This document shows, one piece after another, positions 30,027 to 55,656 of a stretch of 64,000 nucleotides of DNA; within the stretch, counting starts at the first letter, position 1; every line of letters starts with the position of its first letter. Below the pieces are notes generated by a model that saw nothing but the letters and a program-made list of their open reading frames with translations, searched no databases and had not been told where the DNA came from. The translations under genes and the position numbers were made by a program. Location of the stretch: positions 31,434,001 to 31,498,000 of the forward strand of contig OX597835.1 in NCBI GenBank assembly GCA_951406725.2, given 5' to 3'. Origin of the DNA: Octopus vulgaris. Taxonomy: Eukaryota.

Positions 30027-30723
30027 TGGATCAAAACAGTGATTCAAATTCGTCGGAAGTTCGAGAGTTTCAAGGATGATGGTAATCTTCAGCCATTTTG
30101 AATTTGAATGAAAGAAGTCGATTGTTATAACGGTAAAGAGGAGGCGCGTGGCTTAGTGGTTAGGGTGTTGAACTCATGATCGTAAGGTTGTGGTTTCGAT
30201 TCCTGGACCGGGCGATGCGTTGTGCTCTTGAGCAAAACACTTCATTTTCACGTTGTTCCAGTCCACTCAGCTGGCAAAAATGAGTAATCCTGCGACGGAC
30301 CGGCGTCCGGACCAGGTGGGGAATTTCTACACCACTAAAACCGGGAAACCGGCACTTATGAGCCTGGCATAACTCGAGAACGAACTTCTCTCTTTCTAAA
30401 GTGGGCTGTGATTGGTCGAGGAAGGTCACGTAGTGTCGTGGTAGGATCTTGGTATAACCGTATATCGGTGACCACAGTTAGATGGAAAACATCGCATGAC
30501 AAACAGGAAATCAACCACGTGGTGTTTTCTAACTAAATGTAACTGATATACCGTTATACCAGCATTAAACCACGACACCACGTGACTTTCCTCGACCAAT
30601 CGCACCCTACCTTACGGTAATAACAATTCACTGCCGTCATTCAAATTCAAAATGGCTGAAGATTAGCATCACGCTTAAAACTGTCTGAGTACCAACAAAT
30701 TTGAATTAAACTGCTTTGATCCA
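30027..30723. mobile_element. Fold-back MITE with long imperfect TIRs, interrupted by a SINE
   Basis: TGGATCAAAACAG..AATCTTCAGCCATTTTGAATTTGAATGA mirrored by TCATTCAAATTCAAAATGGCTGAAGATT..CTGCTTTGATCCA; inner arms ~30405-30480 and ~30530-30610; TA flanks. Confidence 0.82.
30139..30375 (+). mobile_element. SINE family C nested in the MITE
   Basis: GGAGGCGCGTGGCTTAGTGGTTAGG..GGTTTCGATTCC..CTTGAGCAAAACACTTCA..CCAGTCCACTCAGCTG. Confidence 0.9.
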
Positions 30724-37270: not shown

Positions 37271-37441
37271 GGCGCAGGAGTGGCTGTGTGGTAAGTAGCT
37301 TGTTTACCAACCACATGGTTCCGGGTTCAGTCCCACTGCGTGGCACCTTGGGCGAGTGTCTTCTACTATAGCCTCGGGCCGACCAAAGCCTTGTGAGTGG
37401 ATTTGGTAGACAGAAACTGAAAGAAGCCCGTCGTATATATG

Positions 37442-37473
<32 letters not shown>

Positions 37474-37683
37474 CGTGTATGTTTGTATGTCTGTGTTTGT
37501 TCCCCCAACATCGCTTGTTTGTTTATGTCCCCGTCACTTAGCGGTTCGGCAAAAGAGACCGATAGAATAAGTACTGGGCTTACAAAGAATAAGTCCCGGG
37601 GTCGAGTTGCTCGATTAAAGGCGGTGCTCTAGCATGACCGCAGTCAAATGACTGAAACAAGTAAAAGAGTAAAAGAGTAAGAG
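37271..37683 (+). mobile_element. SINE family A, full length (octopus OK/OR-type tRNA SINE)
   Basis: A box TGGCTGTGTGG, B box GGTTCAGTCCC, internal (TA)n(TG)n, tail (GTAAAAGA)n. Confidence 0.93.
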
Positions 37684-52345: not shown

Positions 52346-52444
52346 TGTATGTATGTATGTATGTATGTATGTATGTATGTATGTATGTATGTATGTGTAT
52401 ATATACATACATACATACATACATGCATACATATATATATATAT

Positions 52445-52695
52445 GGAGGCGCGTGGCTTAGTGGTTAGAGTGTCAGCATCATGATAGTAAGATTGTTGTT
52501 TCGATTCCTGGACCGGGTGAGCCGTTGTATTCTTGAGCAAAACACTTCATTTCACGTTGCTTCAGTCTACTCAGCTGGCAAAAATGAGTAACGCTGCGAT
52601 GGACTGGTGTCCTGCCCAGCTGGGGAACACATACGCCATTGGAACCGGGAAACCTGGCCCATGAGCCTGGCTAGGCTTTAAAATGGCACATTTAC
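52445..52695 (+). mobile_element. SINE family C
   Basis: Near-identical to 30139-30375. Confidence 0.9.
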
Positions 52696-52710
52696 ATATA
52701 TATATATATA

Positions 52711-52747
52711 GGCGTAGGAGTGGCTGTGTGGTAAGTAGCTTGCTAAC
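52711..52747 (+). mobile_element. SINE family A head (left part of the interrupted copy)
   Basis: GGCGTAGGAGTGGCTGTGTGGTAAGTAGCTTGCTAAC; the SINE resumes at 55268. Confidence 0.9.
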
Positions 52748-53664
52748 TTTCGTCGGAGTTAGACGTGTTTTTTGGCAGCTGCCTCAGATGTCACGTGTTG
52801 CCACGTGAAATATTGAACATTTTACGTCAACGGGTGGGACGTTCGAATATTGTTGGAGGCTTAGTGAGGTTTATTGCCTGCCGTTAATACTTTTTAACGT
52901 TAACGTTATTTAGCATTAATAATTTTTTGCAGATAATAGACTTCACTTTGCTTCGGATATATTTTTTCTGCCTGTTGTCGTATTTAATGTCTCACTTTTT
53001 AGTGAGAATTGTGTTTTTTGAGGAGGCGTAGCCCCTCCGCAAAATATTTTTGATTCATTGGAGTACCCATTTCACTTTTGGATTACCACACGTGAATTAT
53101 TGAACTTTTTGGCAACAGCAGGTAGGACATTTGGATATTTTTAGAGGCCTAGTGAGGTTTATTGCCTGCCTTAATGCCTGTTAACATTAACGTTATTAGC
53201 ATTAATAATTTTCTTGCGGGTAATGGACTTCACTTTGCTTCGGATATATTTTTCTGCCTGTTGTCGTATTTAAAAGTCTCACTTTTTTAGTGAGAATTGT
53301 GTTTTTTGAGGAGGCGTAGCCCCTCCTCAAAAATAATTCGATTCATTGGATTACCTATTTCGCTTTTGGATTACCACACGTGGAATATTGCAGCTTTGGA
53401 TTACCAGGAGGCACCAAGGACATTCGTGGACTGTTTTTACAAGCACCAGAATTACCAAGGATTGCCGTGACGTTTGGCCTGGACTACCTTTTCGGCCCCC
53501 AAAAAATAATTCCTTGCCACATTTGAACTCTTTCCTCTAGCTATCCTTTATTTGAACTCCGAACTGTTTTTATTGTAACTCTCGTTTCCATTTTGTTTTC
53601 TCTTTCTACTTCCTATCACTTTTGTGTTTTTCCTATTTGAACTGTATTTACATTTTTGTTAAAA

Positions 53665-54903
53665 ATGGCAAAGGAACTGATTGTGTGGGAGCTGGAAGCT
53701 CCCAAAAGATACATAAAAACGCTGGAGGATAAGACCGTGGTGTTGAGAACTTATTCAAAGTCGCTCAACGCCATCATGGTTTTTCCAAAGGCGAAAATAA
53801 TTGAAGAGCTGGCAGACTACATGCCAGCCGTGAAATATATCACACGGGGAGCCAAATACGCAACGGTTTGGTTGCTGTTTGACTCCCCAAAAGCTGCTTG
53901 CGAGTTTGCAAGCAAGCCCATTGAGGGCAAAGAAATCTTGTTTCTCCCTAGTTACAAGGGAGAAAAATTGACAAGACTATGGGTCTGCGGCCTGCCACCC
54001 GGCATTGAACCCGAGTGGATAGAAGACTCTATCTGCCGGGGTCTGGGTGACAGGGAGGCAAAAATCCTAATTGTTAGGATACAGCCTGCGGCTGATTGGG
54101 AGGGGTCTAAGGCTACCTTAACCCTATGGACCCAGTCAGCCAAGAGTCTGGTTTTGCCGGACTTTTTAAGAATGGCCGGGTCCAAGTATCCGGTGATGCT
54201 TGAGGGACGCCCCCCACCCAAGTGTCACCTGTGTTTGGAGACCGGCCACATCAAGAAGAGCTGCCCCAGGGACCAGAGTAGGATCCTGGAGCGGCTGATA
54301 TTGGAGCCTCTCCCTGCCTCTTCAATGGAGGGAGAGAAGCAAAATGAGGAGGGGGAAAAATCCTCCTCCAAAAGAAAAAGAATGGTGGGGAGCAATGGCG
54401 ACCCACCAAGGGACCTGAAAGCTGCGGGATGGGAGAACCCGATGCGCACAGCTCCGGAACCTCAGCCTCCCGTGGCCCAGGGCCAGAAGAAAAAGAAAAA
54501 AAAGAGAAACGGAGCGCCGCCGGCGGTTTGCTACACGCAGACGACGTTTCCCGAGTATCCCGGATCCTCTCAGGTGGGTGTGCCGCCTGAGGGACAATTC
54601 GTGGAAGATTTTGTGCTCCTCTTTTTTAAAGGAGAAAACGTGGAAAGCACCGTAAGAAAAGTGAGAAAGAGAGGACGTTGGGAGGTACTCTGGTCCTGTA
54701 AGGAGGACCCCGAGTGGCCTTCGCAGTTAGCTGCGGAGGTTTTGAGAAAGGCTGATCTACGCAGGATCGTGGGTTCCTTCCCAACGGACTCCTTCAAGAT
54801 TATACCTCTGGACACCGGCCTGACCAGCGAGTATTGCCTCAATGAGGCAAGAGCGATGTCGGCCGGGTCACATAGGCTGTGTAACATTTTTGTAACATGT
54901 TGA
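53665..54903 (+). CDS. Gag-like ORF1 nucleic-acid-binding protein (putative RRMs + CCHC zinc knuckle), 412 aa from first ATG
   Basis: Only long complex ORF in the window; CHLCLETGHIKKSC (C-X2-C-X4-H-X4-C) at 54223-54264; RLWVCGLPPGIEPEWI resembles the Tx1/L1 ORF1 RRM start; basic KKKKKKR tract. Confidence 0.85.
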   Translation: MAKELIVWELEAPKRYIKTLEDKTVVLRTYSKSLNAIMVFPKAKIIEELADYMPAVKYITRGAKYATVWLLFDSPKAACEFASKPIEGKEILFLPSYKGEKLTRLWVCGLPPGIEPEWIEDSICRGLGDREAKILIVRIQPAADWEGSKATLTLWTQSAKSLVLPDFLRMAGSKYPVMLEGRPPPKCHLCLETGHIKKSCPRDQSRILERLILEPLPASSMEGEKQNEEGEKSSSKRKRMVGSNGDPPRDLKAAGWENPMRTAPEPQPPVAQGQKKKKKKRNGAPPAVCYTQTTFPEYPGSSQVGVPPEGQFVEDFVLLFFKGENVESTVRKVRKRGRWEVLWSCKEDPEWPSQLAAEVLRKADLRRIVGSFPTDSFKIIPLDTGLTSEYCLNEARAMSAGSHRLCNIFVTC

Positions 54904-55130
54904 AGAGGAGGTTTATTGCCTCCTCTAAAATTTGTAAAATTTGTAAATTGAATGTTAATTTAAACATTTTTGTAACATTTTGAAGAGGAGGTTTATTGCC
55001 TCCTCTAAAATTTGTAAATTGAATATCATTATGAACATTTTTTGTAACATGTTGAAGAGGAGGTTCATTGCCTCCTCTAAAATGTGTAAATTGTAAATTA
55101 TTGTATTGAATGTAATTATTGAACATTGTT
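54880..55130 (+). repeat. Three 72-80-bp tandem units, each with a hairpin
   Basis: AACATTTTTGTAACAT(G/T)TTGA-AGAGGAGG-TT(T/C)ATTG-CCTCCTCT-AAAAT(T/G)TGTAAA; hairpins at 54904, 54984 and 55056. Confidence 0.92.
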
Positions 55131-55267
55131 TTAGAGAAGCGAGAGTCGGCGGGCGCTTTTGACTTCTCCCATCACCATCTTCATCCACCACCACCATCAT
55201 CCATTAATGTCCTTGTCCAGCCCGTAGCTACTCTGTGTGCTGCCCTAGTAGCAAAATATTTGAAATA

Positions 55268-55638
55268 AAGTAGCTTGCTAACCAGCCACATGGGCCCGGG
55301 TTCAGTCCCACTGCGTGGCATCTTGAGCAAGTGTCTTCTGCTATAGCCCCGGGCCGACCAATTCCTTGTGAGTGGATTTGGTAGACGGAAACTGAAAGAA
55401 GCCTGTCGTATATATGTATATATATATGTATGTGTGTGTTTGTGTGTCTGCTGTGTTTGTCCCCCTAGCATTGCTTGACAACCGATGTTTACGTCCCCGT
55501 CACTTAGCGGTTCGGCAAAAGAAACCGATAGAATAAGTACTGTGCTTACAAAGAATAAGTCCCGGGGTCGATTTGCTCGACTAAAGGCGGTGCTCCAGCA
55601 TGGCTGCAGTCAAAATGACTGAAACAAGTAAAAGAGTA
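55268..55638 (+). mobile_element. SINE family A, remainder of the interrupted copy
   Basis: Continues CAGCCACATGGGCCCGGGTTCAGTCCCACTGCG through GAAACAAGTAAAAGAG. Confidence 0.92.
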
Positions 55639-55656
55639 TATGCATATATATATATA

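Follow-up and report, generated by a model that had tools for sequence, protein, structure and literature searches.

The window analysed here is a stretch of 64,000 nucleotides of Octopus vulgaris DNA. It contains a 2,520-bp insert, flanked by identical 15-mers, that divides a host SINE between its A-box-like and B-box-like motifs and carries a single ORF (Table 1). The position between the two boxes, which had been proposed in an earlier note on this DNA, is borne out by these motifs and by the intact copies of the same SINE in the window (for example at 37271-37671 and 26415-26020), in which head and body are contiguous.

Table 1. Features of the insertion and its host SINE (positions in the window)
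Feature	Position	Strand	Remarks
SINE head, 5' portion	52711..52732	+	A-box-like motif at 52721-52731; target-derived
15-nt target site, 5' copy	52733..52747	+	across the family, partly an element-borne leader
ORF1-only non-LTR element	52748..55267	+	2,520 bp; without poly(A) tail
5' UTR	52748..53664	+	917 nt; tandem duplication of ~287 bp
ORF1	53665..54903	+	412 aa here; 394-403 aa in relatives
Two predicted RRM-fold domains	53698..54204	+	aa ~12-102 and ~103-180 of the structural model
CX2CX4HX4C zinc knuckle	54223..54264	+	aa 187-200
3' UTR	54904..55267	+	three repeats of 72-80 bp (54887-55102)
Terminal 4-bp-stem/5-nt-loop motif	55241..55253	+	common to the autonomous LINE; one stem mismatch in the window copy
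15-nt target site, 3' copy	55268..55282	+	target-derived; first-strand nick presumably just 5' of the site
Host SINE body	55283..55640	+	B-box-like motif at 55300-55308; youngest (TAAC) subtype

The two copies of the 5' UTR duplication (52802-53102 and 53089-53390) are 87% identical. The ORF of the insert has no Pfam match to a reverse transcriptase (RT) or an endonuclease, in agreement with the earlier note. It is the longest stop-free frame in the window outside simple repeat, the other ten ATG-initiated ORFs of at least 150 residues being wholly or partly microsatellite. The frame is open and has its CCHC knuckle, as had been described, but it is uninterrupted in a formal sense only: the window copy has a 1-nt deletion near position 54857 that is absent from all 12 of the relatives compared. 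This deletion puts the final ~14 residues into another frame and makes the ORF longer than those of its relatives. The nearest relative of the window copy is 95.7% identical to it (about 4% apart); recent activity can be ascribed not to this copy but to other subfamilies, the youngest of which have copies that are 99-99.5% identical.

T-runs situated right after the junction would stop RNA polymerase III. Transcription by this enzyme from the SINE head is therefore unlikely, and a Pol II promoter is presumed to reside in the 5' UTR. Contigs from sequencing runs that were only guessed to be RNA, and that had no silent control, span most of the element and of the family C LINE described below. 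Three of them (X1, X7 and X11) run from the SINE head into an element; the contig starts coincide with assembly branch points, and these contigs are given no weight here. A second, different SINE-like repeat is situated just upstream of the host SINE, at 52441-52690, with related copies at 30140-30368 and elsewhere.

The host SINE is presumably the octopus OK SINE. The putative tRNA origin of its head is based on the A- and B-box-like motifs; ARAGORN found no tRNA genes in it, and an intact copy gave no tRNA match in Rfam. The SINE can be separated into three subtypes having mean pairwise identities of 0.73-0.80 (the oldest, represented by only 12 sequences), 0.86-0.90 and 0.93, from which they are judged to differ in age. 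The first 20-30 nt of the SINE are often duplicated in tandem (363 pattern matches; L285-L314), while the body is nearly always normal. Such duplications upstream of some insertions could have meant that the entire SINE head is part of the RNA. This reading was discarded, since at 23 of the 24 distinct loci with a duplicated head an ordinary SINE body follows, showing that the duplication is a trait of the SINE.

The structural model of the ORF1 protein covers the part preceding the C-terminal ~100 residues. This model (pLDDT 83) has two RRM folds followed by the knuckle, tandem-RRM matches were obtained at E ~1e-4, and superposition onto the La RRM gave a Z score of 9.2 and an rmsd of 3.0 for 83 aligned residues. 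The knuckle itself matches Pfam zf-CCHC at E 0.055, below the cut-off. The predicted layout is RRM-RRM-CCHC, that is, Type I, the type made up of RRM plus CCHC in the ORF1 classification scheme (PMC5203782).

A genome search with ORF1 gave 11,579 first-look candidates, and all of the 150 that were scored are at least 66% identical. The structure without ORF2 belongs to a multi-copy and old family, the stop codon lying 215-367 nt upstream of the 3' junction in 27 of 30 open ORF1s. For residues 8-205 of 30 ORFs the median dN/dS was found to be 0.17-0.21 for pairs at a dS of 0.05 to >1, the pairs being non-independent and limited to open frames; nine of the 39 ORFs had been dropped beforehand (seven of family C, one of the second lineage described below and one frameshifted). 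The C-terminal ~100 residues have a dN/dS of 0.3-0.55. Judged by these ratios (dN/dS ~0.2), ORF1 is conserved under selection. The sole homologue of ORF1 found in the databases, with 60% identity, is LOC115225585, a gene model of 281 aa from Octopus sinensis, which is probably a copy of the element family annotated as a host gene.

The earlier note had suggested that the element may be directed to the SINE head. This was confirmed upon searching the 2.8-Gb genome for the 3'-terminal 168 nt of the insert, stripped of flanking sequence (1,082 candidates, 40 scored, 30 loci). All 31 of the 3' junctions at the sampled loci open with the target site, beyond which 21 enter the SINE body and 10 another element. 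In a separate set of 30 loci found with the 5' end of the insert, 27 of the 5' ends are at the site, following the SINE head in 25 cases and the end of another element plus the site in two; the remaining three are away from it. There are 1,074 exact junctions of this kind genome-wide, with many distinct 3' end variants among them, as opposed to none for the control, and 53,949 exact empty target sites.

The terminal 3' motif alone has 556 matches in the genome, only 193 of which are followed by AAGT. Twenty matches lacking AAGT were fetched. Twelve of these are members of the element family that occupy the same base, but in an older variant of the SINE (AAGAAG...TTCC). Of the others, one copy is truncated, off target and flanked by a duplication of 15 nt, and seven are unrelated short elements. 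The older ORF1-only subfamilies thus occupy the same base in the older form of the SINE. The hairpin of the 3' motif has hundreds of matches genome-wide. The unrelated short elements (L265-L267, L270-L272 and L276) end in this hairpin but occupy AT-rich sites, and possibly represent another LINE or SINE family with the same 3' signal.

The elements also stack head-to-tail inside a single SINE, with the site retained between units. Such arrays contain three units in L061 and seven in L065-L066, and some arrays are homogeneous, with seven units at a spacing of ~1,990 bp. The largest (G000:C7:13458000-13498300; L111, L064, L063, L062 and L112) has at least 15 element ends in ~40 kb after one SINE head, without the SINE body being reached. 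Its units come from ORF1-only subfamilies and from a second lineage of the ORF1-only kind, along with LINEs that belong to other groups.

SINE sequence lies on both sides of nearly all copies, as would also be the case if one ancient insertion had given rise to a composite of SINE plus insert that spread by means of the SINE tail or by segmental duplication, and some of the homogeneous arrays may indeed be local duplications. Nevertheless, mixed arrays, in which unrelated families and full LINEs each end at the site, exclude a composite moving as a unit as a general explanation. Moreover, 5'-truncated copies meet the SINE head directly with duplications of 6-16 nt. The lineage of the element is also uncoupled from the subtype of its host. 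A C/T variant in the SINE head is linked to the body subtype in occupied and empty SINEs alike: the T-head is found in 7/26 occupied SINEs of the TTAC type versus 3/46 of the TAAC type, and in 7/34 versus 2/66 empty ones (hand count). A single element lineage is present in both subtypes while the linkage of SINE head to body is kept, from which the insertions are judged to be independent. The composite is thus largely refuted and hardly credible as the source of the family.

The two copies of the target site do not have the same origin. Both ends were compared at 76 loci, at which the 3' copy matches the host SINE and the 5' copy matches the element. The identity of the copies over 15 nt was counted on 65 single full-length insertions, leaving out six multi-unit arrays and five truncated copies (L163 was removed as truncated). 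The copies are identical in 26/42 full-length insertions into TAAC-type targets versus 2/21 in TTAC-type targets. In the lineage designated CGAACGG all 12 of the 5' copies have a TCTCAC variant, and in another lineage 14 of 16 have a variant that is one base shorter; both variants are absent from all 76 of the 3' copies. Upstream of the site, the SINE head remains target-derived. Truncated copies have true duplications, 6-16 nt long. The leader of the element happens to equal the SINE subtype that hosts the window copy, which partly explains the exact match of the 15-mers there. The "exact 15-bp TSD" of the earlier note is therefore correct as to identity, but as a duplication it is in part a leader borne by the element. 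By analogy with R1 and R2, the RNA likely starts in or just before the site, so that the cDNA would anneal to the nicked target.

The same junctions might be produced without any leader in the RNA if the second nick were made at about +9/+10. The true duplication would then be 9-10 nt long and the next 5-6 bases would be nothing more than the fixed 5' end of the element, left over from an old target as a fossil. Identity between the 5' and 3' copies does break most often at position 9-10, and several truncated copies have duplications of 10-12 nt, whereas other truncated copies have duplications of 15-16 nt (L163, L279 and L280) and variants at position 5-6 recur within one lineage on different contigs (L036, L037/L124). 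We consider this alternative unlikely, although it deserves to be kept in mind, and prefer a leader carried by the RNA.

A candidate for the autonomous partner sought by the earlier note, having the same site and the same 3' end, was found in a LINE designated family C, which ends at the SINE site in 30 of 30 copies. It is ~5.45 kb at full length. ORF2 is open, with 1,140-1,150 residues, in three of the 18 copies examined to length (L212, L218 and L219), and contains the Exo_endo_phos, RVT_1 and zf-RVT domains; its best match among solved structures is human L1 ORF2p (E 1e-66). ORF1 has a zf-CCHC match at E 2e-5. Copies are up to 99.8% identical. Most are frameshifted, some of them possibly through assembly errors. 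An ORF2 relative was found in Argonauta, and no named Tx1 element is among the 120 homologues listed or the nine clusters looked up. Family C appears to be an L1/Tx1-type LINE: its domain layout, with an APE endonuclease, an RT and a C-terminal zinc domain in ORF2 and an ORF1 of Type I, and its target specificity fit the Tx1 clade. Its 5' end (L218:1924-1960) opens with a short tag, after which the target site appears a second time in decayed form, as though successive rounds had each added a leader.

Family C and the ORF1-only elements have in common the last ~27 nt, which include a hairpin whose 4-bp stem encloses a variable loop of 5 nt. The stem is fully paired in 137 of 149 junctions. Covariation is weak, since the stem is nearly invariant (134/149) and the search pattern fixed one of its arms. 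The motif also ends the unrelated elements (7/20 loci) and, as a variant, LINE group B, showing that the motif alone does not choose the partner. Group B, a related group which served as a control, is at the site in 1/20 copies, namely the query itself, and is ruled out as the partner. The LINE in L064 was rejected as well: its 3' end is shared only through running into a truncated ORF1-only piece, and its group, the related control group A, has other flanks, with 0/30 copies at the SINE site. This abundant, Tx1-like group (L125-L154) ends at a GAGTTAGTTCCC motif in about 9 of 30 copies and at a CACTCGCTAC motif in four or five, and forms tandem copies at a spacing of ~5.28 kb; these recurrent flanks probably mark further target-specific families.

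Family C is not the parent of the ORF1-only elements. The two ORF1s are only 26-27% identical, and in the ORF1 tree the ORF1-only elements form a separate long-branch clade of 17 rows, none of which is labelled autonomous (five are unlabelled). The second ORF1-only lineage (~1.5 kb; L062 and L118) uses the same site but groups with the other ORF1 clade, so that ORF2 has likely been lost at least twice.

Taken together, the insert is quite probably one copy of a multi-copy ORF1-only family that resides at a fixed base in the head of an abundant SINE and for whose copying, in trans, family C likely provides the endonuclease and RT. The shared end and site are observed; recruitment is the step that they suggest. 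Pol II would transcribe the element under the control of the 5' UTR, with a start inside the duplicated target or immediately ahead of it, and the RNA would thus carry a short target-like leader, which is seen in the variants of the copies. The element's own ORF1 protein (predicted RRM-RRM-CCHC), whose conservation is observed, would package the RNA in cis. The ORF2 protein of family C would then grip the terminal hairpin, introduce a nick at the fixed base of the SINE head and copy the RNA by reverse transcription. A second nick at most ~15 nt downstream would leave an overhang to which the cDNA leader could anneal. The 5' site copy takes the variant of the element from about position 5-10, a pattern for which this chemistry is suggested by R1 and R2. 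Since the site remains on both sides of each insertion, any family that uses it could stack head-to-tail.

The main helper might instead be a different autonomous family using this site, or several such families in turn, some of them extinct, with targeting and mobilization in trans otherwise the same. The ORF1-only lineages span a dS >1, the older ones occupying the older SINE variant (identity 0.73-0.80 versus 0.93), and are far older than the 99% copies of family C; the 3' end variants among the 1,074 junctions are many, and the survey covered the top matches of three ORF2 groups. However, no autonomous group other than family C turned up at the site in that survey; family C has open ORF2s, and its age matches that of the youngest ORF1-only subfamily. 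A different main helper is accordingly regarded as improbable, and family C is retained as the likely source of endonuclease and RT.

More tentatively, and at somewhat less than an even chance, these families may form a long-lived guild at one SINE base, in which a site-specific LINE has tracked three successive SINE subtypes together with at least two independent ORF1-only lineages that have a deeply diverged RNA-binding protein of their own, a borrowed ORF2 and a target-matching RNA leader that overwrites the duplication. On the main reading already, the SINE copies would be a renewable landing pad for other parasites, and the SINE head may be the "safe landing site" that the earlier note imagined. 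The sites fall into three layers of age, with more than 50,000 of them empty and more than 1,000 filled, and provide tests, by means of the genome only, of how specificity tracks a changing target. The system also bears on the priming of the 5' junction in an APE-type LINE and on why the ORF1 of a passenger stays under selection, and it cautions that the element itself can contribute part of what looks like an exact target-site duplication (TSD). For retrotransposon-based insertion tools, an endonuclease/RT that is compact, site-specific and accompanied by a natural passenger in trans is of interest. Searches of the open-access literature returned no description of a LINE that targets a SINE head or of this octopus element family, although supplements or Repbase Reports may contain one. 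Each ingredient has a precedent (ORF1-only passengers, repeat targeting by Tx1, TSD-separated arrays and target leaders); no report of their combination, or of a SINE head being targeted by a LINE with single-base precision, was found in the open-access literature.

Tx1 (which inserts into Tx1D), Tx1-Mar with its passenger SINEU, Keno, Kibi and Koshi are target-specific members of the Tx1 clade, and the targets named in PMC4494074 are DNA transposons, LTR elements, snRNA and 5S genes, satellites and microsatellites. The preference for repeats and transposons, and a non-autonomous passenger having the same target, are also found in the octopus. However, the Tx1-clade passenger in that text is non-coding, whereas the octopus passengers keep a conserved ORF1 and the target is the head of a SINE.

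PMC2718515 and PMC3774820 describe R1 tandem arrays split by a 14-bp TSD, and R1 and R2 RNAs some of which bear target sequence from upstream; annealing of this sequence has been proposed to prime the second strand. Arrays separated by the site and a target-matching leader are likewise features of the octopus elements. R1 and R2 are autonomous and inhabit essential 28S rDNA under concerted evolution, whereas the octopus elements target a SINE, which is dispensable, their leader overlaps with the duplication and the trait is shared by ORF1-only passengers lacking RT.

HAL1, according to PMC5753468, is non-autonomous, encodes ORF1p only and arose more than once. The likeness drawn in the earlier note holds insofar as the octopus family is ORF1-only, multi-copy and non-autonomous, and a second, separate ORF1-only lineage exists in the octopus too. 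However, HAL1 derives from mammalian L1, with an ORF1 of Type II in the scheme of PMC5203782. Pfam finds zf-CCHC only and not Transposase_22 in the octopus ORF1, and its relatives are octopus LINE ORF1s; HAL1 is thus an analogy only. The octopus element moreover lacks a poly(A) tail and is strictly site-specific.

HeT-A with TART/TAHRE, as described in PMC5537684, resembles the octopus system in having no pol, depending on a partner and forming mixed head-to-tail arrays. HeT-A is confined to chromosome ends, whereas the octopus arrays are interstitial, in SINEs throughout many contigs, and their units end at a nicked sequence site instead of a chromosome end. If the guild exists, it would form the counterpart of HeT-A/TART at dispersed, non-telomeric positions and would offer a natural way of testing why ORF1 has to act in cis although ORF2 can be borrowed. 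The element works like HAL1 and HeT-A and belongs to neither.
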